From Amphiscolops sp. MND2022 (taxonomy: Eukaryota), in contig OZ076409.1 in assembly GCA_964187785.1 (NCBI GenBank), positions 4,094,001-4,158,000 on the forward strand: a stretch of 64,000 nucleotides of DNA, read 5' to 3'. Positions 980 to 36,156 of the stretch are shown one piece after another. A model generated the notes under the pieces. That model saw only the letters and a program-made list of their open reading frames with translations, was not told the DNA's origin and made no database searches. The number at the start of each line of letters is the position of its first letter. Position 1 is the stretch's first letter. Position numbers and translations under genes: made by a program.

Positions 980-1005
980 TTATTAAGTATAATTAGTAAA
1001 TATAT

Positions 1006-1403: not shown

Positions 1404-1431
1404 ATACTGTTATTAAATCTAATTTAATTAA

Positions 1432-4790: not shown

Positions 4791-4795
4791 GATTT
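4741..4795 (+). promoter_or_regulatory. Probable TATA box and initiator of element 1
   Basis: GGGGTATAAATA about 30 nt upstream of TCAGATT; gag ATG follows at 4882. Confidence 0.55.
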
Positions 4796-4881
4796 AACGT
4801 ATCTAGTAAAGATTGTTCTACAAACGGTTTACTGTTATTTTCCGAGTTAAGTAATTCATTGTTTATTTCGGACTTTTCTCA

Positions 4882-5355
4882 ATGCCTACTACTAGAAAGC
4901 AAAAGAAAGCGAGAAAATCAAGAGGCTTAGAAATCCTCTCAGATATTGAGAACCTTGACATCATGCTAGGTGAGAATCACTTCAATGAAACTGAAAGGGA
5001 TGAGAGCTTAGACAGTGCTTCCGTCAGAAGACATGATAGTGTTACGAGCAAAAATCTAGAAAATGAAGGTGGTAGCTCATACTCTAATCATATGAATTCT
5101 ATTGTCAGAGCAAACACCGTTAACGGACAAAATTCAGCAGACGTGAGTTCTCAAACTGAGTGCGGCACTTGTGGCAAGAAGAACCATCCGGAAGAACGAT
5201 GTTGGCAAGTCGCAGGTGCACACCTTAAACCCAAGCGCACCAGATCCGAGGATTCAAACGATAACAAATTGAATTCCAAAGCTCAAAAACCTCCGATTCA
5301 GCCAACATCGTCCAATTCTCAATCCTCATCTTCCAATGATGAGTCAAAAAACTAG
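4882..5355 (+). pseudogene. gag: gag remnant, apparently internally deleted (N-terminus fused to zinc knuckle)
   Basis: CGTCGKKNHPEERC is a CX2CX4HX4C knuckle only about 93 aa after the start; there is no room for a capsid domain. Confidence 0.7.
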
Positions 5356-5839
5356 CTTCGCCACGACTCCAATAAAACCAGCTAGTCTCTGTCCGACAAA
5401 ACATCAAATCGGACCCTCCAACTAAAAACTTTCACAATTACCAACAACAATTGATGGGCTATCCTTCTGTTGTCTGGCAGCAACAGATGGAAAGAGCTAC
5501 CATGATTACCTACAATAATACCCATTTGTTCCAGAAACCAACTCCTGTTTGGGATCCTGATCATACAGCTACCTTTGCCACCCAATTCAGGCCCATTCCC
5601 CTGGTAGATGATTATAATCCTACATACATTGACCCAGATTATGGACGAGACCCTTATTGGGACACTGAACTATACAATCAAGACCTGTTACAGTTCCAGT
5701 ATGTCCTAGATGACATCGAACACTACAACAAGACAGCACACGAAAACCCTCCAATTACCCACAACAAGAAAACCAGAGCGCTAATTGAAAACTGGCAAAT
5801 GAATGATGGTACAAACCATCCGGTGTTCCCAAACCCCTA

Positions 5840-8800
5840 GGGAACCGAGAATACTGAAACCTGTGACGAACCAATCTCGCAATCATTATTAGATGAAAAA
5901 CAATTCCAGAATATCCTCATTTCCAAAGACGCCGAACCAGACTGTGTACCCCTGTCAACAACCATCAAACTTAAATGCAAAAAACGCATGTTGTATTTCC
6001 CAATGGACTTTGAGGAATTGTCCATAGATGGACTAATTGATACTGGGGCACTTTCTAGTGCAATCCCAGAAATGAACCTCCGGAATATCCGACTCCTATC
6101 TCCACAATCAGTTATCCGGGAAGGTCCACCTCCGAATTTCCAAATCATGGTCGCAAACGGGCAACCAGACACTCCTAAGAGTATGATAGAGCTTAAATTT
6201 GAAGTTGGTGACATTGAGTTTCACGAAATTTTCATGGTAATGGAACATTTGACAGGACCGATTATTGGACTAATGTTCCTTCAGAGAAACCATACAGTGC
6301 TGGACATGAGGCAAGGAATACTGAACTTCCCGTTCTTTTCGATGCAGCTGAAAACAGCTGACCACAAATACTCCAACGTACTAGAGCCGATTCTCAACCC
6401 CACTGAGATAACCATTCCGCCAAATGACAGAATCCTAATTAGGACCAACTCCTTACTGTAGCCTGAGAATGCTGTTACTGGCATTTTACAACCGAGTGAC
6501 CTTCTACATGAAGAAGGGGACATCACATTTTGCCCAGCCTTGGTCACCCTGAATGATGGAAGTATACTGATACCAGTGAACAATTTCACGAACCACCCTT
6601 ACAAACTTAAAAAGGACTTCATATTGCCAATTTTTCTGTCATGACGCCGGAACAAATGAAGTACGTACGTCAAACAGATAGATCCGGCATCAACCTGGCA
6701 CTTCCTACAACAGGACAAGAGCAAGCGGCTCACTATGTCAGCAGTCTCATCAAGGCGATTAAAAACCCGCAAAGTCAAGAACATTACTGGTTTCTAGTTC
6801 CGAAGATCCCAGGCAACCCGGAAGAACATACACCAATACAGAAAAGGCTCTTACGAGAATTACAAGCCTTACAGGACCAGGAGACCCTTGATACTACAAA
6901 AGATCCAGAATCTCGGTCAAAGTTCCTTCAAAACTTCGACTGGAAAGACTCTACTCTGACTCCTGAAGACAAGGACAAAATCGAAGACTTATCAGTGGAA
7001 TTCCATGACATCTTTGCTCGACACCGATTCGATATAGGCATGAATGAGGACTTTAAGGTAAAACTTACACCTAAAGACGATTCCCCAGCCTATAGCCAGA
7101 GCCTCCCAGCACAAATAAATTTGAAGGAGGACAAATTAGTCGAACTAGCAATGCCCCTTAAATATGGAATTATAACGACTCTACCATTTTGGAAATACAC
7201 CAGCCCAATATTTGCACAAAAGAAACCAAATGGGAAACTCCGACTCCTGGTTGACTTGAGAAAAATCAACAACCTAATCTCCGACGAGTATATCAATAAT
7301 AACCACCCAGTCAGTACCCTAGTCGACGCTGCCCAGCACATGGCAGGCAAGAAACTCATTTGCGAATTGTACTGTTCACAAGCGTATCATTGCCTCCAGA
7401 TGGCTGACCAACGTTGAATCGAAATGTTAGCATTCAACTTTGCAAGCCGCACGTTCGCATACCTACGTTTGGCACAGGGCCTTAGTCGGTCACTGTCCGC
7501 ATTTTCAAGCTTCATGAGGGAATACCTTGACAAAGTCATAAAAGTGGATCATAAAAGCCCAGTACGTAGATCAGCTAACGACGCTGATCACCTCATTGCC
7601 AACCTGAGAGCAACTTTTAATTGCATTCAGGAGGCAGGCCTTGAATTGACAATGCACAAAGTCATTTGGGTGCCACAGAAAATGATTTCTTCGGCAGAAC
7701 AATCACCTCACAAGGCGTCAAACCCCAAAGGCAAAATGTTCAAAACTTCCTTGGAAAAACCAAATTCCCAAAGTCGAAAAAAGTTTTACAGAGATATTTG
7801 GGCTTCCTGAACAACTACCGAATATACGCCTCGCTCCAATCTACAAGATGCTGAAAAGCGACGAAAAAGTCCTGATAACGAAAGAATTGGTTCAACAATT
7901 TGAGGAAATCAACAAAGCGCTTGACAGATGTTGTGATTTGGCCCTACCACAACCCATTCCCAACAAGCAAATTGCGATGATGACTGACGCAAGCTTTGGT
8001 GCAGCCGGATACGCAGTCTTAATTGAAGACGACCCGAATCAGAAAATTACGTCACTCAGAAAGTCGTATGCACCGGTCGCTTACGGATCAAAAACCTTCA
8101 CCCCAGCAAAAATCAAGACGTCGATTTATGCCAAGGAATTTCTTGCAATTTATTTTGCATTCAAAGGATTTGGCCATATTTTCTGGGGTGGTCACCCGAA
8201 TTGGTCATTATCCTCACAGACAACAAAGCAGATTGTTTCAAACGAAAATCGTAACCCCAGCTCTGTGGAATGCGTGTGACTATGTGATTCAGTTCAATTT
8301 TGTCATAGCACAAATCCCAGGAGAACAAAAAACAGCAGCAGCCTAATTGTCCCGTCTGAAAGCAGACCCGAGAGACAAATTGGTCATGAAAATCCGAGAA
8401 GATGTACAAACCCTACCCATCGAAATAAATTTCCAATCCGCAGGGGTGTCACAGGAAGAACAAATCTTCTACACCAACGACGATGAAACAGAGGAAGAAT
8501 ATTGGGCGACGAAAGAAGCAATCAGGAAAAATCTCGCCATAGACGAGCCCACTGTAACAATACAACTCTGTCCACAAATTTGGTCAAACAACAACATGAT
8601 ATACAAGTCCGATTGCGGAAGACGAACCAGATCATTATCGAGCAATCCGAAGATGCAGTACTACAACAATTGAAGGCAAAACTCCTTCATGAAGATTACT
8701 CATAGATTCTACTGCAACAGGACGCCCGATAAAGACATTACGCCAACAACTTGGAAGGAATCTAAGTCAAGGATGAGATCCTGACCAGGCAATACTATGA

Positions 8801-10521
8801 CGAAACAGGGAATGTAAAATACCATCAAATTCTACTCCCGCAACACTTACTCCAGGAATTGCTTCAATTTCTACATGGGACAGCTCATAAACACCCTGGA
8901 ATCTCGAAAATGTTGCAAGAGATCAGACAGAGGTATTACTACCTTAGCATGGCAAAACATGTTAAAAAGTGGGTAGAAGGGTGTGAACAATGCGCAAGAG
9001 ACAAACGAGTCCCTAATACAACGATTACGCCTGAACTGCTCAACTTGCCGGAGTGGGAACTTGGACCCGAAGACGCCATGCAGATCGACTTATTGCCAAA
9101 TCTTCCCCCAAGTGGAGGGTATGAAATTGTCCTAACGGCAATCGATGTATTCTCCAGATTTCTATTCGCCTATCCTCTTACAGACGCATCAGCGATCAAT
9201 GTATCAAAAGTAATCATTGATATTATGACCAAACATGCATACCTACCGACGACGCTTGTTACTGATAAAGGCACTGCATTCACTTCCACAATTATTGCCG
9301 AAATTACGCAAATTTTGGGAATCACACTCAAATGCGCCACAACAAAGCATCCGCAAACAATTGGGAAATTGGAGCGGACTCATGCCTCATTGAACAAATC
9401 TCAAAATGGCATGTGGTGAATACCGCCGACAATGACATAAATACTTGCCATTAGCAGTCCTGAATCATAATACCAGCTATCATGACAGTATCGGTTGTGA
9501 ACCGACAAGAGTGTTCCATGGAAGAATTCCATACAACGTCTTGGATCACAAGCTTGGAAGTAATCCAAACGAGCAGATCCACCCAACAACCGAATTTGCT
9601 GAAGAAATCCAAAACAGGACAAAAAGTTTGATTGACAAAACCAAACAAAAGATTATGCAGTCGTATATCAAGTACAAAGAATACTATGACCGCAAAGCAA
9701 AAGCTGCCCCATTAAAGGAGAATGAATACTGTTTCGTATTACAGCCGAAAGCGGATCATCAAGGTTCAAAAATCCCATTTCGAGATTATCGTTGGGTCGG
9801 ACCATTTATAGTCCAAAAAGCCTTACCTAATGAAAATTACATTGTCAGACGGATAAATAGAAAGAAGACTCAAGTATTGCATCGAATCCGCCTTAAAAAA
9901 TTTGTTCCCAATCAATCGCTTGAGGACAATTTCCGAGAACAGAGATTACAGCCTGATAACGAAATTGTCATTCCGCAAGACGACCAGTATATCATAACGT
10001 GGGAAACAGACTTTGGTGAACAGCTAGCTACACGAGGCAACGAACCTATTCCGACTAGCTGGCCAAACGGCGAACAGCCGAGTGCGGCACAACCGAATCC
10101 AAGTGACGCACAAGAGAATGAAGTGGATTTTATATAATCACGAGCGACGAATCGAATTACGCTGACCGTACGGCGCACAGCCGGAATGAACAATTAACTG
10201 ATGACGTCACTAGAAGAAATGAAGCTAGTGAAGCGACTAGAGATGAAGGATCTGATTGACCAAATCCGGCCGGTCACCCAAAAAGATCAAGAAAAATCTT
10301 TGCCGAATACGGATAAAGGACTGAAAATAGATGAAAAATTTTCACAAAGAAATCCGATGAATGAAAAAGCTCAACAAAACACTCCAAACAGGGGGGATGA
10401 TATTATCGTGCTCGAAATATCGCAAGATGATGTTAGAAACGGAAATCTGAGTCCTAGAGGTGGGAGATATAATCTCAGACCTAATCCTAATCCAAACTAC
10501 TCAGAGGACTTCAGATACTAG
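5840..10521 (+). pseudogene. pol: pol (aspartic protease, dUTPase-like spacer, RT, RNase H, integrase), fragmented
   Basis: LIDTGA; SPIFAQKKPNGKLRLLVDLRKIN; QGLSRSLSAFS; MTDASFGAAG..KEFLAI; HKHPG..CEQC, QIDL, TDKGTAF, GKLERTH. The YxDD motif is destroyed. Confidence 0.92.
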
Positions 10522-10750
10522 AAAAGTCTGAATTCAGCTCAGAAGACGAGCCCTGAATTCTATTTTCTTTTCTTTTTTCTTTTTTCCAAGTCCCATGACA
10601 GCAATTTTTGAATAAATAATGGGACGTATCGGTGACCCCTGCAGAAATCATAGATATGGGGTACAAAGAGAAAGTGGGAACAAACAAAACAACAAAAGGA
10701 ATGAACAAAAATTACGGTTTGAGTGTACATAAATACATATGTACAAATAA

Positions 10751-12920
10751 CTATTTAGACGATCCCTGCCTGGGGAAGCTCTTTACAGAAGAAGTTGGGG
10801 ACTTAGTCCCGGCACTCCCAGAACGCTTCCTCTTCATGCTACTAGGGATATCCAAAGCAGGCTGCTTGCTCAGGGCACTGGATGACGCAGTTTCTTCTAC
10901 AGTCCTAACGCTGGCAGAAGTGGTAACAGAAGCAGCCTTGTACGACGACAACAGAGACTTATATATTCGAGACCGCCCAAACGAGTCAAAAAAGGTCCAT
11001 GTGTCGTAGTCGTTAGCGAATGCGGCTCGTCCAAAGTCCACCGATAGAAATGAGAACTTTGCCAGACTATCGTCACTACTGCAATGGGCTACCGAATCAG
11101 ACACCCCAACCATGTAGTTTTGAGACGGGAGCGCCACATCAGTGAAACGACCTTTAAAATCAGACGAATTGATTCCCCCAATAACAACGGCGGGTGACGT
11201 AGGGCTGCTGGTTGTAAGACAAAGGCAACAGAGCTTAAACAAATACAGAGGGCGAGGACGATAATGTAAAAACTCGAGGCCCATCAGGAATCCAATCAGA
11301 TCTTGCGACGTCTCGGAGAAATCAAAATTGGAAGGATATGTACCTCGGAGGTAATCTAGAAGCTCAAGGTACTCATCTCGGTAAACGGACTCATCAGCAC
11401 TGGTTACCCAGGAACGCAGGAGTAAGGTAGTATACAGGGTCTCAAAGTGGCGAAGAGCAACTTCAGTCGGTCGCTTATGGAGAATAAAGGGATCAAAGGC
11501 AGCAAGTCCCTTAACGATATCGGAATTCAGTCCGGACTGACGAAGGGTAGCATCGAGGAGGTAACCAATGTATTGGAATGCGCTGGTTACGAAGTTTGTT
11601 TTTACTGCCTCAGCTGTTTTCTGGATAACAGACGGGGAAGCATCGGTACAGAGTGGATCCCTTCCGCTTTCTGTTTGCTGGCAGTATTGACTTTCAAGGT
11701 GAGTTTTTGCCGGATAAGAAACTCGTCCACGCTCATGTACTTTCCTTCCGAAGTTTTGAGAGCAAGAAGGACGAACCAGGCATTTTCGAGTGGGGCAGTA
11801 TCAGGGGTGTAGCATCGAAAGCATAACTTGTGGATGAAGCGACATACCTCTCCACACAGGAAAAATGATGCGTCTCGTCTCTGGCTCAAGTTAACTGCGA
11901 AGCTGGTTACATCTGAAAACATAAAGTAACATCCAAACTCGGACACACAACCAGCATTTTGAATGCTATAGAATCTACTAACAATCACTGACGAGGAGTC
12001 GAAAAAATTCCAGCTTAGCCACGAAGAATTCATCGCAAATAATTGACCATTCGAAACTCTGCACCTGCAACAGAAATATGTCCTGAAAACCCTGTTATAA
12101 CAGACCCTGAGATAAGGAAATTAAATCCTTTACAAGAGACTAGAAGGAACTTGACCAGAAAAGACATCTCGCCATTGAATGCACTCCTTGTCCTTCCTGT
12201 CTGGGGAGTACTTCGTCAGGTAAAGGGTGATCTGTTTCCAATGAGCAATGAGTTCGCGGCAGAGCTCGGGTATCTCCTGCAAGTTCAACCTGCTGGCAGC
12301 TAAAGCCTAAAAGAGACAAACCCAAGTAAACATAGGGCTCTAACCGCAACCAAACTACACCCTAACCTCATCCAGTCCTATGGCCCGATTATGTTATGAT
12401 CTACTTACCCGGCTGAGGTTGGTGGACTTGAGGACCCAGGGTTCGGCATGTGGGTTTCCAACGGCGACAATCAGAGCTTGGAGGACAGAAAAGAAGTCGA
12501 TCTTCCCAAACACAGAATAGCTCAGTTTGTGCATTAAAGTGGGAAGGTCCAAGTTGTCAAACCGGAAGCAGGTTTGGATCCCTCGGCTGAAGAAGGAAGA
12601 CTGATTAAGGGTTTGGATCAGACCAATGGGGTCCATAGAGCAGGCAACAATGTCAACGCTTGTAGACGTGACAGAGAGCAGACGCGGCAGACATCCCAGT
12701 TCGCCAGTTATATCCGTGGATGGCAGGGCACTACGGCACACAAAGACCCGGCACAACTCACTGCTTTTCCAGAACCGTATCGACATGAATCTGAAGGTCT
12801 TCTTCTTCTCGAATTCAACAGAGAAACATTGCTCGCTGGTAATTTGCTCGGCGATGTCTTCCATTGCTCGGTTGAAGTAATGCTGGAAAATGACCTACAC
12901 AAGAAACATCAAATTTAGAA
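10751..12920 (-). pseudogene. Antisense accessory ORF(s) of element 1, unknown function, disrupted
   Basis: Consecutive minus-strand ORFs 12394-12864, 11602-12033 and 10751-11284 with coding-like composition, converging on the pol stop. Confidence 0.55.
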
Positions 12921-13629
12921 AATGAACTGGGACACTGGACTAGGACTAGCGGTGTAAATACAGAATACGGTGAATCTGGATGACTGTCGTAATCAGGGAT
13001 GCAAATATAGAGAATATGAAAATGTAATGAATACAAATAAAGAAAAGGAAATGAAATTCTGCAACAATCTGGAGATTGAAAGTTGGAGTTCGTGGCTGAA
13101 GAAATTACCAGACTAATATTATGTGATTATCTACATATTTAAAACTGTACTTGGAGTCTGCCAGCGAAATGTACAAGGATTTTACATCATTTACAGCCTA
13201 TGTAGATGGTGGCCGATTATGGCCGTTTGCCTTAATTTGTTTTGCCGCTTTGTTCTGCTATCCCAGTTACCTTTAGTTAGAATTTCGCCATTTTGAATTA
13301 TTTAGAATTATTATTCTCGCCATTTTATTTATTCATTTTTCATTTTATTGTTGGACGATTCTGATTGGCTGAAGCCATTTTGGGAAGGTTTGGTGTCGCG
13401 AGCCGTTAATTACGTCAGGTTATCAAAGGCAATCGACCGTCAGCGGAATTCCATTCAGAAAAGTTTATGCCGGATTAGGATAATCAACCGAAATTTTAAC
13501 CGCCAAATTAGAAACTTCGGGAAAAGGCCTCATTCGGCTTACTCTGACGAGACGGTAAATTCATTCTAAATTCGACCCGGCTAGAGTCAAGTTGCTTGAT
13601 AAAACTCGCAAAATTGCTAGAAAATCATC

Positions 13630-14398
13630 ATGAATTAATTCAACAGAGCAAGGAATCTTTTTGGTTCCATAGACTTAAGCTCAGAATCTTCAGCTGATTC
13701 AGTGATCTACATAAGTAGTGACGAAGAAGCTTCCGATGGATGGGACTCAGACTGGTCAACAGACACTGAGGAAATGATAAAGAGGGTGGAAACGCAAGTG
13801 AAGGCCTGCCCTATACCATTAGCGGGAAGGAGAATGACAACCGCAACCGACGAACCGGGCACTAGTACTTCGTCCTCTGAAATGCAGATTAGACCTAAAC
13901 TGGGCAAGGCCTACTTTGATGAAAAACTCTGTTACGCGCCACCAAGAGGCAATGTGAAAAGGAGGATCGAACTGTGCAAGACAATTCTACCAGTTGCAGA
14001 ATCACCTATGTCGCCACTGCTCATGAGGGGGACCTTCTCAAGACACACCTTTATCGCAAGCCGAGAGTAGTAGATTTCATGCGTCTTACCAGATACAAGG
14101 CTCACTGCCCTATGCGGTTATTAGCACTCAAAGGTGCACCAGTTGAATGGTGTGTGGGAAATCAGTTGACGAGATCAAGGCCCAGAAGATAAAGAGGTAT
14201 ATGGAACTATCAACGCCACGGAGTGAGCCGGCGTATATCTCTGCACTCAGAAAGGAAGCGTACACAAACGGACTTAATGCAGGCAGTCTACTTTTTATAA
14301 CACCCGCTGTGTCGCAGGCTGCCGCCTGTGACGGTACCAAAATAGCTACGACGGCAAGCGAACAAGAAGTAGCACCCGGTACATTACCCATATACTAG
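13630..14398 (+). pseudogene. Sense 3' accessory ORF with acidic N-terminus and Cys/His motif, disrupted
   Basis: ORF pieces 13702-14070 (VIYISSDEEASDGWDSDWSTDTEE) and 14147-14398 (HCPM...VCG); the stop lies inside the terminal repeat. Confidence 0.55.
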
Positions 14399-15465
14399 GA
14401 ATTAAAACTCCATGAACTTTTTATATTGCTTTTACCTTGAGATACAAGGTTTTTGTAAATTAAACGGATACATTGCCTTATTGGGAACTATTCCCACATT
14501 TCAATATTACGATAAATGTTTCAATGATGTAAATCCTGGTTTTTTTTAGATTTTAGTTTAATTGTTCCGCATTAGTCTGTTAACGTGAATTTGCTATTCA
14601 CTGTGCTGTAACGATAAAGTCAATGCAAAGCTGAATAGAATTAACTGCAAGGCAAAAAGGAAACGAGTTCAAGTGAACACAACTCTGATTCCGGAAACGT
14701 CACTTGAGCTCAACATTCCAACCAATCACGTTGCTTCATTTTGTTTTACTGGTGCGACTTTAATATAATAGTGAAGGCGTAGTAAGGCCAATTGACTCAA
14801 GGTAATTATTTTAATCTACGCTTTGATCAAACGGCCGATTTCGGCTATTTCAAATAGACACAATGCTGCTACTTTAATTATGGTAGTAACCAACCTATGC
14901 TACTTTAATTGTGATCTTAGTACCAAATTATCGTCTTTGTGCTGTTCTGATGATTTAGTGAGGCTGATATTTCATTAATGGACGAATAAGGCATTTTGCC
15001 CCTTTTCTTCCAATGCTCATCCAATAATTTGGATTTGGCCAATTCCGGCCCTATTATGAAAACGCTGTATTTTACGCTATTATAGTAAATAGTATTGTGT
15101 TGAAGTATCCATAAGACTTTGCATCTATTTTCATTCTTAAGCGAACTCAACCTCACTCATGTGGAGGCACGTGCCGACACCTTTCTGTGAAGTTGAATGC
15201 GTCAAATTCCATTGTTGCATAGTAACACTTGTTGACACCCTAATAATGATGTTTTGTTAGTTATGTTGTTTGAAGTTGCGGTATGAGTTGAATACCTTTC
15301 AAAATTTTGTCTGCTAAATTCCCAGGATATGTAGAATATCGGGAAAATGTCATGTGCATTACATACCTTATGATATCAATCTTGACTAGAAATATGTGGA
15401 AAATGTGAGTGTCATCCACTCAGGGGTATAAATACCGGTGTTTAGCCTGCGTGGGACACAAATCA
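14309..15465 (+). repeat. Right copy of element 1 direct repeat
   Basis: Aligns end to end with 3641-4790. Confidence 0.9.
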
Positions 15466-18400
15466 TGTTGCGATCACGAATAATGTTGCAATTCGATGGT
15501 GATAGTGGTTTGCTGAAGATGGTATGATGAATTGGTGTATACCAGACTTTTCAACTCCCTTGTGTATCAACTGCGTAATCATTTTGTACGCGGTGGCTAA
15601 ATCGGGACATTCAGAAGTAGCAGTGAATGTCATCATTAGGAATCATGGGAGAAAAAATTTTGGTAGAAAATGTGGTTTTAAATAAAGGAAAAGACATCAT
15701 AATTTGATTAGCATATTTTGATAGATTTACTGTCAATGAGTTGATAGCGTTACTTTTTAATAAAGACTAAGAAAGCAACTGATCTAAAATTGACAGACTT
15801 CCCAGGTTTTTGATCTTTGCGAATCTGTGCAGATCTGCAGGATTTTTTCTGCAGGCCTCTGCAAACATCGTTGCACTGAATCTAGAAGATCCATATAGAT
15901 CTGCAGGATCTTTACAGAGGAGGGTAGATTTTCTTTAAAGATTTTTGCAGAAATACGTTTCCTGCAGCTTCTAAGGAACCAATATACTGCATTTTTGGAC
16001 TTCTTTAACTACTTCATCAACTGTTTTAGTTGACCAAGGCTCAGTCGGTTGATCAGTAAAAATTCTCAAGAAGGAAAATTTGTCCCCATCACAGTAGTTT
16101 TGATGACTGGAGAATGCGCCGTATCAGTTATACACCGTAATTTATCCATTTCACTTGAACTTTCCAGAAGTGGTTGTTGAACTTTGGGGAGCTCGTTTGC
16201 GTCCTTGACTTCGTTTTGACGGATGAAATTTGACATGTGGCAACCTTCTGGGTTGGTAGATGTGTTGATAAAGTGTTGTTGTTGTAATATTTCCGGAACA
16301 TGGCTTGTTGGAGTAATTTAAATAACTTCTGGTAACTCGGAATACGTTATAGTAATATATTGGCCATTGTTTGGATCTGTAAAGATCTGTAAAGATCTTC
16401 AAAACTCTACAGATCTGTACAGATTACTGCAGAAAAATGTTTCATCATTTTGCCATAAATTAGATTTCTCTCGAGTTTCAAACATTTTTATTATTCGTTT
16501 GACATTGCTGTGGGGTTTTTATTGTGTTGCTAAGTAGGTCGTTTTTCTTCGAATCTGCACATATCCGCAAAGATCTACAAAAATCCTGCAAGGACTTGTG
16601 GTTTGAAAAAGAAAAGCAGGAGATTTTGTGATTTAAGTTGATCATAAGATGGGTTAGAATAGCTAGGTGTGATGTGGCAAGACAACGTATTCACAGTTCC
16701 CAAGGCAACATTTGTAATAGTTTTTAGTAGGCGCGTTTTCCTTTTAAAGAGAAATGCCCTATTATAGCAGTGACTTTTTTCTTCAGACTACAATCCTCGC
16801 ACTGATCGGCCCACTTGTTAGAAACAATACTGTGATATACCTATACTTTATAATCGATCATCCCCTCTCCACTCATTTGTTGATTGTCTACACGTAGCTA
16901 ATGTATCTTGAAAAAAATAATGTATCTCATTCATATTCAAAACCATACCTACACTCTAAACTAATTATCTGATATTTAACCGCTCACAATTCTAATAAAG
17001 TCTTCACCATCCAGTTGTCATCCTCTCTAAAAGACCTAATATCTGCATCTCTATAAGCGTCCTCTTAAAGTACTTAACATCCCGTCTCTGAAATAATCTT
17101 ATTTTACGCTATTATAGTAAATAGTATTGTGTTGAAGTATCCATAAGACTTTGCATCTATTTTCATTCTTAAGCGAACTCAACCTCACTCATGTGGAGGC
17201 ACGTGCCGACACCTTTCTGTGAAGTTGAATGCGTCAAATTCCATTGTTGCATAGTAACACTTGTTGACACCCTAAAAATGATGTTTTGTTAGTTATGTTG
17301 TTTGAAGTTGCGGTATGAGTTAAATACCTTTCAAAATTTTGTCTGCTAAATTCCCAGGATATGTAGAATATTGGGAAAATGTCATGTGCATTACATATCT
17401 TATGATATCAATCTTGACTAGAAATATGTGGAAAATGTGAGTGTCATCCACTCAGGGGAATAAATACCGGTGTTTAGCCTGCGTGGGACACAAATCATGT
17501 TGCGATCACGAATAATGTTGCAATTCGATGGTGATAGTGGTTTGCTGAAGATGGTATGATGAATCGGTGTATACCAGACTTTTCAACTCCCTTGTGTATC
17601 AACTGCGTAATCATATTGTACGCGGTGGCTAAATCGGGACATTCAGAAGTAGCAGTGAATGTCATCATTAGGAATCATGGCAGAAAAAATTTTGGTAGAA
17701 AATGTGGTTTTAAATAAAGGAAAAGACATCATAATTTGATTAGCATATTTTGATAGATTTACTGTCAATGAGTTGATAGCGTTACTTTTTAATAAAGTCC
17801 ATGAAAGCAACTGATCTAAAATTGACAGACTTCCCAGGTTTTTGATCTTTGCGAATCTGTGCAGATCTGCAGGATTTTTTCTGCAGGCCTCTGCAAACAT
17901 CGTTGCACTGAATCTAGAAGATCCATATAGATCTGCAGGATCTTTACAGAGGAGGGTAGATTTTCTTTAAAGATTTTTGCAGAAATACGTTTTCCTGCAG
18001 CTTCTAAGGAACCAATATACTGCATTTTTGGACTTCTTTAACTACTTCATCAACTGTTTTAGTTGACTAAGGCTCAGTCGGTTGATCACTAAAAATTCTC
18101 AAGAAGGAAAATTTGTCCCCATCACAGTAGTTTTGATGACTGGAGAATGCGCCGTATCTGTTATACACCGTAATTTATCCATTTCACTTGAACTTTCCAG
18201 AAAGGGTTGTTGAACTTTGGGGAGCTCGTTTGCCTCCTTGACTTCGTTTGGACGGATGAAATTTGATTTGTGGCAAACTTCTGGGTTGGTAGATGTGTTG
18301 ATAAAGTGTTGTTGTTGTAATATTTCCGGAACATGGATTGTTGGAGTAATTTAAATAACTTCTGGTAACTCGGAATACGTTATAGTAATTTATTGGCCAT

Positions 18401-19150
18401 TGTTTGGATCTGTAAAGATCTGTAAAGATCTGCAAAACTCTACAGATCTGTTCAGATTACTGCAGAAAAATGTTTAATCATTTTGCCATAAATTAGATTT
18501 CTCTCGAGTTTTAAACATTTTTATTATTCGTTTGACATTGCTGTGGGGTTTCTATTGTGTTTCTAAGTAGATCATTTTTCTTCGATTCTGCACATATTCG
18601 CGAAGATCTACAAAAATCCTGCAAGGACTTGTGGGTTGAAAAAGAAGAGCAGGAAATTTTGTGATTTAAGTTTATCATAAGATGGGTTAGTATAGCTAGG
18701 TGTGATGTGGCAAGACAACGTATTCACAGTTCCCAAGGCAACATTTGTAGAATTGGGGGAAAAACTTGTAATAGTTTTTATTAGGCGCGTTTTCCTTTTA
18801 GGGAAAAATGCCCTATTATAGCAGTGACTTTTTTTAGACTACAATCCTCGCACTGATCGGCCCTCTTGTTAGAAACAATAATGTGATATACCTATACTTT
18901 ATAATCGATCATCCCCTCTCCACTCATTTGTTGATTGTCTAAACGTACCTAATGTATCTTGAAAAAAATAATGTATCTCATTTATATTCAAAACCATACT
19001 TACACTCTAAACTAATTATCTGATATTTAACCGCTCACAACTCTAATAAAGTCTTCACCATCCAGTTGTCATCCTCTCTAAAAGACCTAATATCTGCAGT
19101 TCTATAAGCGTCCTCTTAAAGTACTTAGCATCCCGTCTCTGAAATAATCT
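15068..19150. repeat. Tandem segmental duplication, two ~2.04-kb units (15068-17099 and 17100-19150)
   Basis: TATTTTACGCTATTATAG...CCCGTCTCTGAAATAATCT occurs twice head to tail; the second copy has a ~20-nt insertion near 18750; paralogous ORFs at 16151 and 18184. Confidence 0.95.
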
Positions 19151-19243
19151 GAAATAAAGAAATAACGTCAAATCTAAAAACAAGTACTTCATCTGGTGGG
19201 ACCAAAGCATCTCCTTCTATCCTTCCCTTTTTCTACAACTTTC

Positions 19244-19602
19244 TGTACTAATCACAACGCCGTGATTCGACCAAAAGTCGGTAAAAAATACAAATTGTTC
19301 TGGACTAACCATCTTTCAAAATGGTTCGACCTCGAAGTCGGTACATCTCAAACTTCTGTACTAATCACAAAACAGTGATATAGCTTTTTGCTTTTTTGCT
19401 AGTACAACTTAACCTTCTGTACTAATCACAAAAAAGTGATTCAGCTTCGTGCTGGTATAAGTGTTTTCTGTACTCATCAAGTTGGTTCGACTCTTGTCAG
19501 CACAGTATAAGTACTAACCTTCTTTGATTCGACATTTTGTTGGTACACCCTTTTCTGTACTAACCAAATTTCTCTTTTTGGTTCAACTTTTTTGTTGGTA
19601 CA
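19244..19602 (+). ncRNA. Array of seven predicted three-way-junction RNA motifs (cis-element candidate)
   Basis: Consensus TGTACT-AAYCA-loop-TGRTT-CGAC-loop-GTCG-GTACA, with compensatory changes between units and variable loops. Confidence 0.7.
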
Positions 19603-20454
19603 ACTCATTTCCATATCTTTTGTATAACTTTAATGCCTTCTCTAAATGATTCAGTTAGTATTTCAAAGATCATTTTATACCTTGTTGGCCTACTTGCGAT
19701 TGTCCTTTTCGTTGTCGACAAATTTAGAATTGGTTTCTTTCCCAGATAAATCTTTTTCAACTCTAACCATTGTTCCTCACCGAAAATCTTGCAACTATAA
19801 TCGTTTTTGTTTCATACATTTTTGCCCCGCTTGTTTTTCTTATGCTCCTCGTTGGAACAATAATCACTTCTCTTTTCCACTATTTTCCCAATCACACATA
19901 CCCTTTCCCCATCTTATCTCTTCATAAACTCTATCTTTTTCATATCTCACTCAATTTTAGTATAATCAACTCCTCCTTTATTTAACCACAACTCCATCAA
20001 AATTTCAACTGCTCTCGTTTCATCTATTTATGTTCCTCTTTCAAAGAGAAGTTCTCTTACACTCAAATCCTTTTATCGCTCTTTCGCAACTCCTCATAAC
20101 CACATTTTTCATTCTTCTTTCAAAACCATGTTTTCACTCTTTTCTCTTTCCCCTCACTAAAATCTGTTCCTCAAACTCCACAGATATTTTTATCCACCCC
20201 CAATTGAACCATTGAACCTTCTATTCACCCTGACGTCATTTTTGATAGTGTTTGGTTGACTTATTACCCTCATCGTCATTCATGAAGGATGACCCACCTC
20301 CTCCTTTAATTCCACTTCTTTTCTCTTGATGATTCTCAGAAAGAGTCTACCCACATTGTTGCAACCGTGTTGCAAGTTACTATAGAAGAGATGTGCTAAT
20401 GTAAGATATCGAATCAATTACTTATCGTTATTACACGAAGAAGTATGAAAACAT

Positions 20455-20890
20455 TTTCTACCGATATTGAAAATCGGAAAAAAAGCTTTGGTTAGTTGAG
20501 AACGTCTACCGACGCAAACTCGAACCAGATGGTCAGTAGAAAAGAAAGCCGAAAGTTGAAAGAAAAAAAGACGAACTGGTTTCAACCAGTTTAAGTACTG
20601 GTGTTTTGATTTGATTTAGCTGGAATTATCAAGTTATATTTTAGATCAAGATGGTTAGCGTTGAAGTCGACAACTTGAGACGCTAACAGAGCTGCACGTA
20701 TTAGGTCTAGAAAACAGCTGTGGTGGTGAAGAATTTATTGTCGGTCTGTATATATTATAAATCAGAAGTGCTTTAAAGTTTTTTGTTAAGGTAAAAAGTA
20801 TTTACGTCGTACATCTGGATAAATGGTAGACAAAAAATAATATGGCAGACAATGTATATGAGAGTAGATCACAAGTGAATGAGTGGAGGT
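20455..20890 (-). repeat. Inverted diverged copy of the leader plus 1-2 junction units of the gag-less family
   Basis: CTAACAGAGCTGCACGTATTAGGTCTA matches 45937-45962 and the reverse complement of ~17030 and ~19085; the unit TCTACT-GACCA-tc-TGGTT-CGAG-tttgc-GTCG-GTAGA is on the minus strand at 20505-20540. Confidence 0.7.
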
Positions 20891-21843
20891 GAAGTAAAAG
20901 TTATTTTGAAGTTGTATCACTGTTTTAATACCCTTAATACTTCCAATAAAACTTTAGGATAAATAAAAGGGAGCTGTTATGGAATTCTTCACAATTTAGG
21001 CCAAAATTTTGCAAAAAAGCGAACCACTTAGATCCACTCCTTGATCAGGTGAAAAAATTTAATAATGAATGTGACATTGACGAACGTTGTGTATAATGCG
21101 TTGACAAAGAGACAGAAAGATATATATTTTTTTGTTTTTAATTTTCTAATCGTTGGAACGGTTTCTCGATTCGGGGCGAGGTTAGTTAGTCTTTACAGCA
21201 AATATTTGAATAGAAAACTACTTGCTTCCCTTGAAAAACGGTTTTTTAAAACTGAGAAAGTATACTCCAGCTGAGAAAGTATACTATTCCATGTATCCCT
21301 CACTTCTGAAACTTCAGAAATTAAGATACTTTATCCAAATTGTAAACATTTATAGATTTTCATGCCACCGTAAACCCGCCATGATAACAGACAGTTAGTA
21401 TTGCCGCTTTGAAAACATACAAGAGAAACGATACTCAATTAACTGTCTGGCACCATGCCGATTTATTTGAAGAAAAAAACAAAAGTGCCAAGGTTCATTT
21501 TCCGATGTTTGGGGGTTAAAGGTGTGCATTGGGGGCATTTTTTAAGTGTGCGAAAGGTTTCCGCTGAAATTTCCAGTTTCAACAGAGTGTGAAGTTCTGA
21601 TCGGGATCTACTTCATCCGTTTGCGGCTGCTTCACGAAAAGTGTCGATGTAGATCACAAAACCGCTTTGAACGTGTTTTGCCGGACTTCTGGTCCAAGTT
21701 GAATTCCGATGTAACAAAAAACACGATGCAGATTAAGCTATTGATGCACAAATTTTCGGAACAAACCGTGTTCGAAAATTGTTTGTACAATGGACTCTTT
21801 ACCCAAAAATTGTGTGTAAAGAATCTCGACCCCTTTTACTAAC

Positions 21844-22047
21844 CAACAGTGTAGCCGATTATCTCGACTTCACAAAAGCCCAGTGTGTGGTACTTGTGTC
21901 TGATTTGAACTTCATTGCCAGTTATGAATCCACCCAGACAGTAGACTCCTGCCCAAGTACCGGGTTTTGTTGACGTCATCACCCCACAAGGTAGGCATTG
22001 AATGCCGTGAGAACACACATCAACCCAGAGTCCTTCCACTTCAAAGG
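21844..22047 (-). CDS. Candidate host exon: C-terminal half of an F5/8 type C / fucolectin-like domain
   Basis: ctgatttcAG acceptor, GTTAGT donor, 204 nt, phase 1-1; ends LGFCEVEIIGY like the L.LCEVEV.G signature. Confidence 0.6.
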
Positions 22048-24018: not shown

Positions 24019-24022
24019 TAAA

Positions 24023-24291
24023 TGTACTGACCTACATTAATAACCAATAGTATTTAGATGTTTATAGAATGTTCTAGAATGTACATTTATTTGTTATTGA
24101 ATGATTGTAAATCTCTACTCCTTCAGAGAGAGAAAACTAATAATCAGTTTTCAGTTGACTTCCTTTTAGTTCTGCTCCTGACACCTCGAACTAGTAGTAA
24201 TAAAGTAAGCTAGCTAGCCTGTCTCTCAGCCGCTTTTAGTAGTTGCGTATAAGACCATCCAAAGAACTAACCAACCATTAAAAGCAGCACA
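24023..24291 (+). repeat. 5' LTR of element 2
   Basis: TGTACTGACC...AGCAGCACA; contains AATAAA; I count 7 substitutions relative to the 3' LTR. Confidence 0.96.
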
Positions 24292-24294
24292 ATT

Positions 24295-24310
24295 TGGTGC
24301 GACTTGTAAA
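24295..24310 (+). promoter_or_regulatory. Primer-binding site (tRNA identity not assigned)
   Basis: TGGTGCGACTTG starts 3 nt after the LTR end. Confidence 0.65.
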
Positions 24311-24531
24311 ATTTTTTTTTGCCTTTTCTCCTGGATGATTTCTCTCCTCTCAACAATCATACAAATACCACTCTCCATCTTTGAAATTCTCTGGAATTGC
24401 AGTGAAATCTTTCTAGAATTTCTTGAAAGTTTAGTCTGTGATTTTCTGAACTTCATCAATAAATACATCATCGTTCGAAACACAATTTCTCCACTACAAC
24501 AAATAATTTAAATATAACAAATTTTCTTCAC

Positions 24532-24862
24532 TACCGGTTTATCACGTTTTCTAACACGTTGACACGGTTCTTCCTCCTGTTCTTTTAGCCATACCGGTTT
24601 ATCACGTTTTCCAATACGTTGAAACGGTTTCATTTCGTACTGATTTATCCATTGTGACACAGTTCTGTTTTTCTTCTTTTTCCAGACTGATGTATCCAAA
24701 GTGACACAGTTCTGTTCTCTATACTGATTTAACACAGCTAATCCGGAAGCTTGTTGAAACAGTTCTTTGATGTTTGTCTGGTTTATCAAAGTTTTCTAAC
24801 ACCTTTGACACAGCAACATTTGTCTGGTTTATCAAGGTTTTCTAACACCTTTGACACAGCAA
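24532..24862 (+). ncRNA. Leader array of seven predicted hairpins with a conserved asymmetric internal loop
   Basis: Units (A)CYG-RTTTA-TCA-[variable stem-loop]-TGA-MA-CRG(T), with ACCG/CGGT versus ACTG/CAGT covariation. Confidence 0.62.
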
Positions 24863-26104
24863 CTTTCTTCAATCCTGCTATCTTGAACGTCAGGTGGACT
24901 CCTGGTGTAATAGTTGACTGAGTGCATGTCCAACTCCGCTCACCTATAAGCACATACGTCTCAAGATCAACTTCGTGTTGGCAGAATACCTGGATTTTCT
25001 ACTTTTACGTTTCGGATCCCCTTTTTATAAAATTTCCTACAAAAAAATTTCAGAAACAGACTCTGAAAACAAGAAAAAGGCAACCAAGACTAACTACAAA
25101 AAACAACCACGCACTATTCCTTTTCCTTTCATATTGTCGACAAACAATACAAATAAATTCACAAAACTTAAATAATACAAGCAACTTCAAAACGTTTTCA
25201 ATAACCAACAAAAATAACAATATCAAATAAACTCAACCTTACCTCTAGTACTTCCAATAATAATAGTTTTAACATAATCCTACAAAACAATTATTTTAAC
25301 AAAATACCACATACAATTTTCACAACCCTTTTGCTTTAAAACTTAAAATAAGGCATGTAAATAACACAAACACAGTAAAGTTAGTTTTCTACTTTCAGGC
25401 ACCCACAATTCCTATCCCCTCCCGTAAGACTTAGACAATCAGACAGCCTCACCAGCTTACTCTGATTCTAAGACTGACTAAAAACCTTAGTTAAGTGTAA
25501 ACGTCTTTAAGGAGAATCGAGAGGACACCGAACTACGTTCGAATCTTCAAAATTCTCAGGAAGTAAAAGTAAAAATAAAAGAAACAAAGATCAAACTTTG
25601 ATCGTGATCAGTATTGATCAGACTTTGGATAGTGGACGTTGATTGTTCAGAGTTCCACTCCCTTAGTCTTAAAACACACAACCCACTTAAAATTAAAACA
25701 ACCTTAGTTTTTTCTGGACGTGTCAGTAACCTTATGTTAGACACCTTAAAGTGATCCAGACTTAAAATAACATTTAGTTTCTGTTAGCAATCCTTTGAGG
25801 TTGAATACAGATCCTACTGCACCCGCTTATTTCTTCTCTATCCTAAACTATTAACTTCTCAAATAACTTCAAATTACAATACAACTTATATGAACCCAAA
25901 CCAAGAAATTTATCCTTTCAACTTTTACATTCCACCAATTAGCTCACTTCAAAACCCTACACCAAACGATTTTGAAAGATTAATTGAACGATATCAACGA
26001 TATTTCTTCCTTATCATAAATCAACAAAGAAATTACCCAAGAGCTCGAACTTAGAAAATCTTTATACAAGACATTTCAACGTTATAACCTTCACATTATA
26101 ACAT

Positions 26105-29100
26105 GTGGGAAAAGGTTACCACAGTAGTACTCATTACAACATACACGTTTTGTGTCTTATTTATAGTTTGTGTTCTTCTCGAAAAAATACTTACGGTGAT
26201 AAGAGACAAACTTTAAAAATGACCACAACAACATTTTTACCTTTTCACACACCCATCATTAAAAATGCAAAAGTTGTAATATTAGAACTAAACCCATTTC
26301 TACAAAACATTATTTCACATTATACACAACCACTCCCATTTGAAAATGAACCACACACAATTGAAACAACCCCTCTTATTAGAGAACATTTGGACACATA
26401 CCTTTTCTATATTAGATATAAAGTTTTAACAATCACCGAAGAATACCCAACTTTTCAAATATCCTTTCCTCAACAAAGACTTAATTCATCTCATATATAC
26501 AGAAGAACAATAAACCCAATAAACCTTCAAGTTCCTATTAAACAAGTTTTTCATGCTTTTCTAAATAATGTAAAAGACCACAATTTAGCACACGAAATTC
26601 CAAAATATAGTCCAAATGCACTCGACGATCTTCAACGATACATAGACAATTTCGACGTAGAAATTATTGAAAGATTGGTTAATCCTGAAGACAACCCTCA
26701 TCATTGGTTACAAGCTGATATATTACGAATTCAAAATTTCATCTACCATTACTTCAAAGACCTAACATTAAATGACCAAACAATTCCTCAGATCAAAGTA
26801 ATATCTTTATTTCTCAGAAAATACTTCAGATTTAATTATCAACTATTATGGTCCCAACAAGATCAATCTGCTTTTACAGCATTTCCAGATCATTTTACAT
26901 TAGAAGAATGTTTACCATTCATCATCAGTGAACAAAATGAACATCCCTACTTTCATAAACCACAATTAATTACAAAACAAACCTTAGATTACATACGTTT
27001 CGATCCTCTATTAATTACAGAAAATGATCTATTCGCAGATAATAGACCTTACCACTATCAACAAAATTCTCAAGATCAACAAAATTTACATTTTAACACT
27101 AACAATTCTACTGAAGATGATAACACCGATCAGGAAAACACAACCCAACAACAAAATCAATCTGAAAACTATAACGATAATGAGTTTACTACCCAAGAAT
27201 CTACAATTTCAACACATAATCCATCACAAACAGGGACATCAACATCAGTACATACTCACTCCTTTAGAGTTCCCACTAGAGTTGTAAACCAAAGACAAAC
27301 TACACATAGTCCTCAATCTCACTTAGCTACATCTCCAAACCGTAATATAACTTTTAACCTTCCACATACAGATGACATACACGATGAAACCCATGATACA
27401 TTACAATATGATACTATGACTACATCTAGTGCTCAGAATATTTCTGTTAATGTTGCATCTCCAACAAGAACTACCTCTGATTCTACAAGATACATTACTC
27501 GACCTAGATATGATCCTCCATCAATTCCCTCCGCCTTTCGCTCAAACAGATCGACCACTTCTAGCAACAATTTTAATGATAATCCTCAAACTTCCAACCG
27601 ATATTACGATCCATTTAATTATAACTTTTATCCCCCATCAAATACAACTAACAATACAAATACCAACCAACACCACTCTCAAATTAATACAATTTCAACA
27701 ACACAGAACCCCTTCATACAATCATCAAATACCAATACGTCCCAGAATATATATTCTCAAAACCAAGGAACCTCGTGTACTTCCACTTCTTATTCTAATA
27801 TTACACAGGATTCTCAAAGAAGACTTCATAATCCTCCACTTACACATATCCCAACTGATCCTCTGTATCAAACGCATCCAAATCCAAATCTTAACCCTAA
27901 TCCTAACCCATTACCACCAAATACAATCCAACATATACCTCCACCACTCACACAACAATTAGCTTCTCCACCCCAATATCTACCAGTGCCACAAGATACC
28001 TTTATAAACATGTCCGCTTCAATACCAGAACCTATGAAACCTTTTGATGGTTTGGACCATTCTTACACCCCCGAAGAATATCTACAACAAGTCGAAGCAA
28101 GATTAACCTTCGCCATAGGTGAAGAACCTCAAAATAATCCTATGAAATACAAATCTTGGCATAATAGACGCATGGCTTACATACAATGTTCATTAACAGG
28201 AACAGCTCTCGATTGGTACACTAACCTCCATATATCATATAAACAACAATGGAATTCCTTTGTACAACTATTCAAAAAACAATTCTCATCTCAAAAAACT
28301 GCTTACTACGCTCAAGTAGAAGCTATGTCACTCATGAAAAAGGATAATGAAACAGTTCGCCACTTCGCCCTTAGAGTACAACAATTAGTTAGAAAGGGAT
28401 GGTGTAATGAAAATGCAGCTACCATAAATCTCAAAAATAATGAAATCTTTACAAAAGGGTTACCAAAGAAGTTAAAAGATTTTGCCCATAAACGACAAGT
28501 TAAACATGTATCAACATTACTTGAACCTTCAATACCATTTCATACACTTGTTAGACATGTCGATTCTGAAGATATTGCTAATGAAAAAATCAGAACTAAC
28601 GACTTAGCCCTAGAAATAAACAAAGTATCGCTTGAAGAGGATACTAACAAAAAAGAATTTGAATATGAAGATCAGATAATGGTTACTCAAACTGGAGACC
28701 CAAATAACAAAAGCAAACCAGCGTATAGAAAATAATGTTCCTATTGTCACAAAAATAATCATAGTATTTCAAATTGTTATCAAAAACAACGTGATGACGA
28801 ATACCAGAAATACAATAACCAAAGATCACGAACTCCTCAACAATCCTTTGTACAATATTTTCGCAGTAAACCTAATAATCCTCAGGAAAATCGAAATGAC
28901 AATACAAACTCTTACTCCTCAGATAATGATCGTAATAAATATAATCAAAACTACTATAATGATAGATACAGAAACAATGATAGATATCGTAGCAATAGTA
29001 GAAAATATTCGCAAAACAACTATAGATCAAACTCTCGACAAAGATATTATAATCGATCCCGAAGTCCATATAGATCTCGATTTGATAATTATTATCAAAG

Positions 29101-32100
29101 AAGAACTCCATCTAGATCTCCATATAGACCTCCATACAGAAATAACTCAAATTACAGATATAATTCTCGCTCAAGATACAGATCTCGTTCTCAATCACAA
29201 GGAAACTCATTTAAACGATATAATTATCGATATAGCTCTCCATCAAGACCTAGAGATTTTAGAACAAGATCTAGAACACCCTCAAGAAACAGACAACAAA
29301 ACAGAATAAATCAAGTAGACGTTAAATCTGCAAAAGAAAATGATAGTACAAAATTTGAAATCCACACCTGTCAAATGACTGAAATAGCTAATACAATCAC
29401 CCCTTATAGTTGGTTTCATCCACTATATATTCACGCTTCTGAAACAAATGATAACATATTATCTTCAAAATTAGAAATCTTATTCCTCTTAGATACTGGA
29501 GCTTCCATATCTGTTTTGAATTTACCAACATTTCATGTAATTTCCAAACAATTAAACATCAATGTTCCAACTAACCTCCAAAACAAAAGAGCCAAAACTC
29601 TTACAGTTGCAAACCAAACTGAAGTACCAATAATACATTATATTTCGATGACCTGTTTCACTGAAGTAAATCACAAAACACGATCCTTCAATATTGATTT
29701 TGCCGTAGCAAATATCAAATACAACATTCTTGGAACACCCTTTTTCAAAAAGCACATCCAAAATATTGATTTTCAACAAAACATTATGACGTACACAGAA
29801 CAACATCCAAAGCTTTCAACAAAAACTACATTTTCCACATTTACAGAAAAAGATTACCCATATATTTCTTACATTTATACTATTAAATGTAAGGAACCAA
29901 TTCACTTTAAACCAAGGTCAGGAAAAACCATACATTTTCCAATTAAAAACTATTCAAATCTACATTTTGAACTCGAAGATAATACGAAGTTCTACCCAAC
30001 AAACCCATATACATATTTCTTACAAAAATTCAAAAATATCTTTCATTTCTTAGATATGATAGTCAATGAAAAAAGCAAAGACTCATGTGCAACCATAATT
30101 CAAAACTTTACATCTTACCCAGCTACATTACCACGAGGAATTATTGGATATATAGAAATACCTATTACTCAAACAACTCCTCCTCACTACAGAGTTAACG
30201 ATGTAAATTCACTTATTCACTCTGTAATACATGCATATCACCCTGATACCACAACCCCGATTAAACAAAATCCATATACAGATATGAACTTATGTACTAG
30301 GGTAATACCACAATCCCTATTAGAAATAAACAAGATAGAAATTAACGACAAAACACTTCAACTTCCTATACCTTCTGTTACTGGAAACCTTCGACCTTCA
30401 GATAAAATTCGAAAAGATTTCCCTCCATTACCCTATTCTACAGAAAACCAACAATTCATAAAGAAGTTCAATTTCGAATACTCAGATTTAACCGATACAG
30501 AATATGTAAATCTCTGCAATATTCTAATTAATAACCAAAATTGTTACGTCAAACATAAAAATGACGTAGGAAAGATTTCTACTCCCTTTCGAATTAGAAT
30601 TAAAGATAATTGTAAACTTCACACACAAAGACCTTCTAAAGTACCTATCCACTATAGAGATAGACTAAATAAACTTTTACTAGAACTCGAAAAATACAAC
30701 ATCATAAAACAAATTGGTTCAACAACAGATGAAAAACATACTATTGGAACAACATTTTTAAACCCTTTAATTATTATCCCAAAAGGAGACGCAATAAAAG
30801 TTGTTTTAGACGCAAGACATTTAAACTCAAACACTAACCAAGAACTTGAATCTTGGCCTATTGAACCTTTAGCTCCTCAATTAGCTAGAGCTAATAAAAA
30901 ATACAAATCAACTATTGATCTAATGTATGCATATGCTCATACACCATTAGATGAAGAAACAATTAAACTTACAGGATTTTCATCCGGTGACAAATTATAC
31001 GCCTTTATCCGTGGATTTTACGGATTAAAAGGACTTCCAAACTTTTTCACAAAACAAATGTCAACTTTCTTTAGATCACTTATAGACAAACGTTCTGCGT
31101 TAGTTTATATAGATGATATTTTATTACTCGCAAATGAAAAACAAGAAATGTTTGAACTTATAAAAGAATTACATACAATAGCATCTCGAGAATATCTCAA
31201 ACTTGCACCTGAAAAATCGTTCTACATGTTACTCAAAGTAAAATTCCTTGGACATGAAATTGGTAACAACACAATTAAACCAATTCCATCCAAAATTGAA
31301 GCTATTAAAAGAATACCATCACCAAAAGAAAAGAAAGATGTTATGCAATTTTTTGGCAGTGTTAACTTTTATTCAAAATTCATTGAAAAACTTCATATAA
31401 ACCTTAAACCATTGTATACATTACTACATGATGATGTTAAATTTCAATGGACACCTGAATTAGAAAAAATATTTCAAAATGTTAAAAACGTAATGACAGC
31501 AGACACTGAATTAACAATACCCAACACCACGCATCCATTTTTCATAACAGTAGATGCTTCGTTAGTAGGTTTAGGCGCAGTCTTATTCCAAATGAACGAA
31601 GAAAATAAGATGAAATTAATCTCTTATAACTCCAGAATTCTCAATACACAAGAACAAAAACTTTCAACTTTAGACAGAGAACTTCTTGCAATAGTTTACG
31701 CATTGCAAATATATAAATTTTTGATCATTGGATCCCCCCATTCTATATATCTCTTCACAGATCACAAGCCTTTACTACATTGTTTCGCAAAGAAAAGAAA
31801 TCTTAGTCCTAGATTCTATAGAGCACAAATGCAACTAACCAAATTCTCCAAATTAAAAATCATTCATACCCCTGGAAAAAATTTAACTGTAGCAGATATG
31901 CTTTCAAGAACCTTTACAAAAGAACAGCTACAAGTACACCAATTACGACACAAACAATTACCACCTCAAATAGATTTCTCTATCATGAAAGATAATCAAC
32001 TCAAACCAGTACATTATTTAGTAAAACATGAAGAAATAAAATATAATCAAAAGAATGATTGTCATCCTATCCTTGCTGACTACGGAGACGACCAATTCTC

Positions 32101-36155: not shown

Positions 36156-36156
36156 C

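Follow-up and report, generated by a model that had tools for sequence, protein, structure and literature searches.

Several described systems resemble the leader array reported here. According to the available portions of PMC13736810 and PMC5784592, the MLV Psi and HIV-1 core signals share with it a location between the primer-binding site (PBS) and gag, multi-helix junctions, palindromes and UCUG motifs that are paired at rest; the HIV-1 core signal has a three-way junction (PMC5784592, same portion), and in MLV the UCUG that is paired in the monomer is freed on dimerisation and binds NC (PMC13736810, same portion). As described there, these signals are single folded domains, whereas the present array consists of four to eight near-equivalent units of changing number, with a putative function. 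In Ty1, packaging signals and Gag sites are placed near the 5' end in the part of PMC4974528 that was available. Coronavirus RSMs are lineage-specific repeated RNA structures (2–8 copies) linked to selective packaging (PMC8206606, available part); they conserve a loop or internal-loop sequence, whereas the array studied here has free loops, a conserved junction and an integrated, reverse-transcribing host.

Variable-number leader repeats are also found in the env-bearing gypsy elements of Drosophila, the errantiviruses, with 5'-UTR tandem repeats of 307 bp in ZAM, 102 bp in Tirant and 151 bp in rover; in the available portions of PMC5408687 and PMC12992720 these are described as DNA-level or chromatin elements and no RNA structure is mentioned, whereas the present units are 40–50 nt long and have covarying stems. 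The "ancient errantiviruses" of Chary and Hayashi (PMC13524379, partial text) show the same LTR-PBS-gag-pol-env order and an HSV/gB-type env, but the family studied here adds three small hydrophobic ORFs and two 3' ORFs; "UTR" and "acoel" are absent from the main text of that paper as available, and the PBS found here from 7 text supplements. The small hydrophobic ORFs recall the sORFs of Drosophila MDG1 (bioRxiv 10.1101/2025.03.14.642691, in its available part), although the present family also has an env. No such array in a gypsy leader was found described in the full-text literature, in a search of mostly open papers with TE databases outside it.

The stretch analysed (the window, 64,000 nt) carries on its + strand, at 19244–19602, a structured array of seven tandem units, each built as TGTAC-T-(hairpin 1)-(hairpin 2)-GTACA (Table 1). 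In this copy 94 of the 102 proposed pairs form, as counted by hand from the sequence, and the folding z-scores against shuffles (-4.6 on the + strand, -3.9 on the - strand) are above chance and pick no strand. Unit coordinates were obtained with a model built on 47 units, five of them from the window array, so these five match it by construction. At family level the third pair of hairpin 1 is U-G in the unit 5 class, and the unit 6 class has a lineage-level C-A mismatch in hairpin 1 (12/18 units).

Table 1. Coordinates of the features discussed (window positions unless a locus is named).
Feature	Position	Strand	Remarks
5' LTR, about 305 bp	18884..19191	+	recurs alone at 3' end of relatives
PBS, tRNA-Met(CAU)	19194..19207	+	decayed here, 11/14 letters match
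Pyrimidine-rich PBS-array spacer	19208..19243	+	from sequence
Unit 1	19244..19285	+	AATCAC/GTGATT; CGAC/GTCG; 14/15 pairs
Unit 2	19301..19345	+	AACCA/TGGTT; CGAC/GTCG; 14/15 pairs
Unit 3	19357..19406	+	CAGC/GCTG at family level; TAGC/GCTA and enlarged loop private to this copy; 14/15 pairs
Unit 4	19418..19459	+	AATCAC/GTGATT; CAGC/GCTG; 15/15 pairs, one G-U
Unit 5	19469..19504	+	degenerate in window copy; 11/14 pairs; model match E 0.064
Unit 6	19510..19547	+	degenerate; short hairpin 1; 11/13 pairs
Unit 7	19556..19602	+	AACCAA/TTGGTT; CAAC/GTTG; 15/15 pairs
Small hydrophobic ORF1 homologue	19633..19743	+	65% identical to young copy's 48-aa ORF
Small hydrophobic ORF2 homologue	19770..19880	+	73% identical to young copy's 37-aa ORF
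Small ORF3 partial homologue	20051..20149	+	sequence homology to family
Partial LTR copy, no array	16833..17099	+	inside 2-kb local tandem duplication
2-kb local tandem duplication	15068-19150		96% identical; copies LTR part, not array
Two further decayed relatives	20400-20770; 45614-45766	-	LTR end, PBS-like site, one to three units
Separate decayed gypsy element	3641-15465		1157-bp LTRs
349-aa ORF in that element	10751-11800	antisense	no Pfam match
Intact-looking BEL/Pao element	52074-60694		950-bp LTRs 99.8% identical; 2088-aa ORF
24-bp minisatellite in BEL/Pao element	53163-53367		
Broken ORFs, Polinton/adintovirus-like look	1-3100	-	no Pfam match in four frames tested
Young family A element, 18.7 kb	24022-42760		env-bearing
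Family A array	24533-24862	+	seven internal-loop hairpins; outer stem ACCG/CGGT vs ACTG/CAGT
Perfect three-helix fold near 5' end of family A LTRs	24033-24083; 42502-42552		
Orphan ORFs after env	39147-40439; 60844-62280; L190 4356-7428		no Pfam match

In the 1.07 Gb genome searched, the half-unit pattern gave 992 exact matches and its reversed control 0, and the parser recovered 3 units from 133,539 nt of shuffled loci. These matches, and the pairs formed, bear out the seven-unit tandem array with paired stems proposed in an earlier sequence-only reading, which is confirmed in part. A generic junction finder gave 26 matches per strand and was not specific. The array was absent from the Tandem Repeats Finder listing, and a simple satellite was rejected as a reading of it. 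In Rfam 15 no family reached the gathering threshold for window 17000–22000 (best E 3), as the same reading had anticipated, and one young leader gave 0 matches at E up to 5. The exact whole-unit pattern found 0 stretches in viral contigs; two single whole-unit matches in metagenome contigs lay in protein-coding-looking DNA without an array and were put down to chance. Hammerhead ribozymes also form arrays of repeated three-helix motifs in retroelements, namely retrozymes and Penelope-like elements, with a conserved, unpaired, catalytic core; this identity was rejected for the present units, which have no catalytic core, have junction strands of 1, 0 and 0 nt, and match nothing in Rfam.

The array is hosted by a decayed and truncated 5' fragment (18884–20338) of an env-bearing Ty3/gypsy family, and copies across the genome share this stretch together with the array. 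The separate gypsy element upstream is not the host. The idea that the array is part of an LTR was rejected, as the LTR ends upstream of the array and is found by itself at the 3' end of relatives (L039 7639–7941, L040 and L043, among others). Homology to the family extends no further than about 20338, so that the window copy lacks gag, pol and env; ending short of gag, and belonging to a subfamily whose copies are about 20% different from one another, it is regarded as a relic. Membership in Ty3/gypsy with env follows from LTRs, PBS and, in a young relative with 322-bp LTRs that are 100% identical, a 4-bp target-site duplication. In array-bearing relatives a gag is followed by RT, RNase H and integrase in that order, a downstream fusion-glycoprotein env and a further ORF, in agreement with the retroelement context first proposed; a search for RT homologues returned 895 matches. 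Young relatives encode a 2637-aa gag-pol, env and two orphan ORFs after env. Their Gag has one CX2CX4HX4C (CCHC) knuckle followed by an Arg/Ser-rich tail, and env matches the Pfam family Monjiviricetes_fusion, which we take to be gB-like.

In the window copy some 40 nt separate the tRNA-Met primer site from the array, and ORF1 begins 30 nt beyond the end of the array. A PBS-like site lies upstream of 77/92 arrays; the spacer is mostly 32–60 nt in older subfamilies and about 70–80 nt in young ones. The PBS matches a genomic tRNA-Met(CAU) gene, called by ARAGORN, over up to 14 contiguous nt in 6/29 close relatives and over 11–13 contiguous nt in 60/60 young copies. The tRNA pattern itself had 509 reverse-strand matches, most of which may lie in a large cluster where tRNA-Met and tRNA-Arg genes are repeated in tandem (G000 C12 from 35.59 Mb, L302). 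Between array and gag three small hydrophobic ORFs of 48, 37 and 78 aa are found (young copy L189, 934–1555); in young copies ORF1 measures 48 aa in 30/30 and 44–45 aa in 28/30. The orphan ORF after env is conserved at 33–89% identity across families and is accompanied by a further ORF. The two accessory ORFs had no Pfam match; ORF4 had none below E 0.03 in 8 members, and its predicted model (pLDDT 34.6) was unusable. Elsewhere in the genome (G000 C8:46.94–46.95 Mb; L009–L012, L026, L038 and L039) LTR and array recur as a 1.94-kb tandem repeat of at least 5 copies. In the window, the broken ORFs of 1–3100, with a protease-type motif, have a Polinton/adintovirus-like look.

The array search was pattern-based, so that remote subfamilies may be missed, and gave 525 candidates, 40 scored and 52 matches. 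With a parser whose anchors leave the variable stem columns free, 107/120 loci gave arrays; 92 arrays with 442 units remained after overlap removal, and 406 units formed the covariation set after eight near-duplicates had been dropped. Five of the 15 stem pairs covary, namely positions 3 and 6 of hairpin 1 and positions 2, 3 and 4 of hairpin 2, which are paired in 86, 78, 88, 89 and 84% of the 406 units, respectively, versus 75, 57, 70, 73 and 80% after shuffling; four of the five are transition pairs, and a CpG contains one. The other ten, including the whole TGTAC/GTACA closing stem, are nearly invariant and show no covariation, and nine of them were parser anchors. Arm spacing varies by more than 10 nt.

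Sorting by order and loops assigned 254/406 units, from three subfamilies only, to classes. For the seven unit classes of the window subfamily 38/42 class-level cells pair versus 32.4 when shuffled (p 3e-4), or 31/35 with the CpG pair left out (p 0.004), p-values that overstate independence because units and copies are related; since classes share descent, about five or six independent compensatory events only are represented. A separate count on 47 hand-picked units bore out the excess of paired cells (0/500 shuffles) but not the number of covarying pairs (102/500). Net divergence between subfamilies, from 12, 22 and 4 arrays, was 0.001–0.031 in stems (a figure that anchoring biases downward), 0.18–0.34 in loops, 0.13–0.20 in linkers and 0.08–0.09 in the LTR. 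Among young copies, which are 84–100% alike, 1965/1965 stem cells are paired in one subfamily (29/30 loci, one left out) and 2681/2700 in a second (30 loci); their arrays hold 4–8 units, which duplicate and are lost. G makes up 23% of stems versus 3% of the remaining leader. In one young subfamily 73 units share a single stem haplotype, yet differ in loops and linkers.

Selection on pairing, the central claim of the sequence-only reading, is supported by the five covarying pairs and by stems that diverge less, and loops that diverge more, than the LTR. Its example TAGC/GCTA does not hold as covariation: it occurs in 1/406 units, private to this copy, as chance decay would allow. Loops and linkers do vary freely, as it stated, but the primary sequence is not variable throughout, the junction being nearly constant. 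We regard the array as real and selected, and as probably structured at the RNA level within the leader of this env-bearing retroelement clade.

As to the strand, singleton variants (n = 177) comprise 35 G-U, 35 A-C, 103 other and 4 Watson-Crick combinations, and variants common to at least three units (n = 10) 6 G-U, 1 A-C and 3 other. The shared G-U excess has p 0.006 against the singleton share; G-U against A-C alone gives p 0.11 and is not significant. U-G pairs are fixed in two unit classes and C-A in one. The lean of shared variants to G-U favours the sense strand and hence RNA, and a fold of the array as sense RNA is suggested by these comparisons. The G-U pairs originally cited for such a fold are minority states and largely private decay (the closing stem of unit 4 has G-C in 35/37 units of its class, and the pair cited for unit 6 is G-C in 14/18); its backing comes instead from the family-level G-U states.

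The 181 unit monomers folded are predicted to close as three-way junctions with a median probability of 0.98. Because GUAC is self-complementary, each 3' arm can pair within its unit or with the next. For three young arrays a ring of hairpins comes out ahead by 10–36 kcal/mol with Turner 2004 and Langdon 2018, whereas with Turner 1999 and Andronescu 2007 separate junctions lead by 5–21 kcal/mol; in eight older arrays linker hairpins are mostly the preferred form under Turner 2004. Testing the register by its outer pairs gave no discrimination (0.85 vs. 0.84). The first arm of an array is a 5' arm and the last a 3' arm, spare arms being present upstream in 3/59 and downstream in 3/30, which suggests that the closed monomer is the ancestral unit, although such edges also fit the ring. 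The three-way junction proposed for each unit is thus plausible as a predicted fold, but with a palindromic closing stem it is one of two registers, between which the energy sets divide 2:2.

At the corresponding place in the leader, the two sister families A and C each have covarying repeats of another kind, and the unit words of families A, B (the window family) and C are mutually exclusive. Across families RT is 76–81% and capsid 62–64% identical, the NC region 36–45%; all have the PBS in common, as well as frames resembling small ORFs ahead of gag, with small ORF1 detected in C and weakly matched in A. The internal-loop hairpin module of family A has 1405 candidates in the genome. Family C (L255–L284), whose PBS pattern has 1971 genome matches, carries tandem bulged hairpins with an ATTC(C/G)T bulge about 160–345 nt after the PBS; they were present in 27/30 loci sampled by that pattern, with stems CTGAC/GTCAG in 50/79 and CCAAC/GTTGG in 22/79 units.

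The reading that fits best is that of a family-specific, multivalent Gag-binding packaging/dimerisation signal, a candidate function to which we give a probability of about 0.45, because it accommodates position, multiplicity, family specificity and a knuckle-bearing Gag. At the DNA level the array sits 32–80 nt after the PBS in most copies and before gag, as a packaging signal would; it has a conserved secondary structure, with suggestive evidence for the sense strand. In the full-length RNA it likely folds in the stretch from the primer site to small ORF1, where its four to eight units could offer the element's own Gag a multivalent landing pad and mark the genome for packaging. The CCHC knuckle and Arg/Ser-rich tail of Gag would bind the array, and the palindromic GUAC arms may swap partners within or between RNAs, exposing the UCUG that overlaps each 5' arm. 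UCUG precedes young units in 128/131 and 172/180 cases; the units carry UCUG-UA only, and the MLV motif UCUG-UR-UCUG is not present in them. The mutual exclusion of the A, B and C units makes a self-encoded partner more suitable than one host protein.

Position alone cannot separate packaging from control of translation or nuclear export of the unspliced RNA, whether by blocking or redirecting scanning, by recruiting ribosomes to the small ORFs and gag, or by binding an accessory protein as Rev/RRE or CTE do. This is the main rival since gag is the fourth ORF, and we consider it possible though less than probable. The array fills most of the leader before small ORF1, the gag start is overlapped by the stop of small ORF3 (TAATG), and the elements encode two accessory ORFs without Pfam match, while ORF4, only 33–35% identical between families, could be a family-specific partner. 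Against such control, an AUG lies within a loop in some copies (16 in 29 and 27 in 30), and the unit number of 4–8 in young copies is freer than in usual IRES domains, which vary less in number. It is unlikely that the units are sites for a host STAR-family protein, with QKI/SF1-type ACUAAY words (the branch-point consensus) held in stems or released, even though every unit contains UACUAAY, the variable letter stays within Y, the density is 15 per kb in arrays versus 0.8 elsewhere, and SF1 and QKI compete for ACUAA (PMC13004596, available part). In either register the predicted fold keeps the word paired, the second hairpin is left unexplained, and words per leader amount to 0.0 in family A and 0.23 in family C versus 4.6–5.9 in the window family.

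Still less likely is that the repeats act as DNA, as enhancer, insulator or heterochromatin-nucleating sites in the manner of ZAM and Tirant. Repeats of that kind are described at the errantivirus leader position (PMC5408687 and PMC12992720, available portions) and the junction words are nearly invariant, but DNA sites predict neither the two-arm change at five positions nor spacing that varies by more than 10 nt, nor a one-strand lean to G-U. Lowest of all we place a neutral by-product, in which units would be duplicated and homogenised as templates switch, the arms staying matched through correction of the palindromes. Units do duplicate and get lost, reverse transcriptase slips between repeats, and CpG decay could turn CGAC/GTCG into CAAC/GTTG. 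Such a process sits poorly with stems that diverge less than the LTR next to loops that diverge two to four times more; homogenisation would carry the loops along, yet these differ among the 73 units with one stem haplotype, and three families each hold a different structured repeat.

The preferred reading of a Gag-binding packaging/dimerisation signal can be taken further, though we rate the extension doubtful: the clade would label its genomes with interchangeable RNA barcodes, a three-way junction, an internal-loop hairpin or a bulged hairpin according to family, each read multivalently by its own Gag, and in the window family the palindromic arms would let modules exchange partners, switching the array between closed junctions and a cross-linked scaffold of dimer or condensate type. 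To our knowledge, the way in which a gypsy-type element selects its own RNA from hundreds of relatives in the same genome has been poorly mapped beyond yeast Ty1 and Ty3, and the RNA structure of Ty3 itself is stated to be uncharacterised in the available part of PMC4974528. Rfam does not contain the array motif. Its 45-nt module, which varies naturally in number, together with the two sister-family modules, forms a ready test of cognate versus non-cognate pairs, a set that bears on Gag recognition, avidity and register switching.
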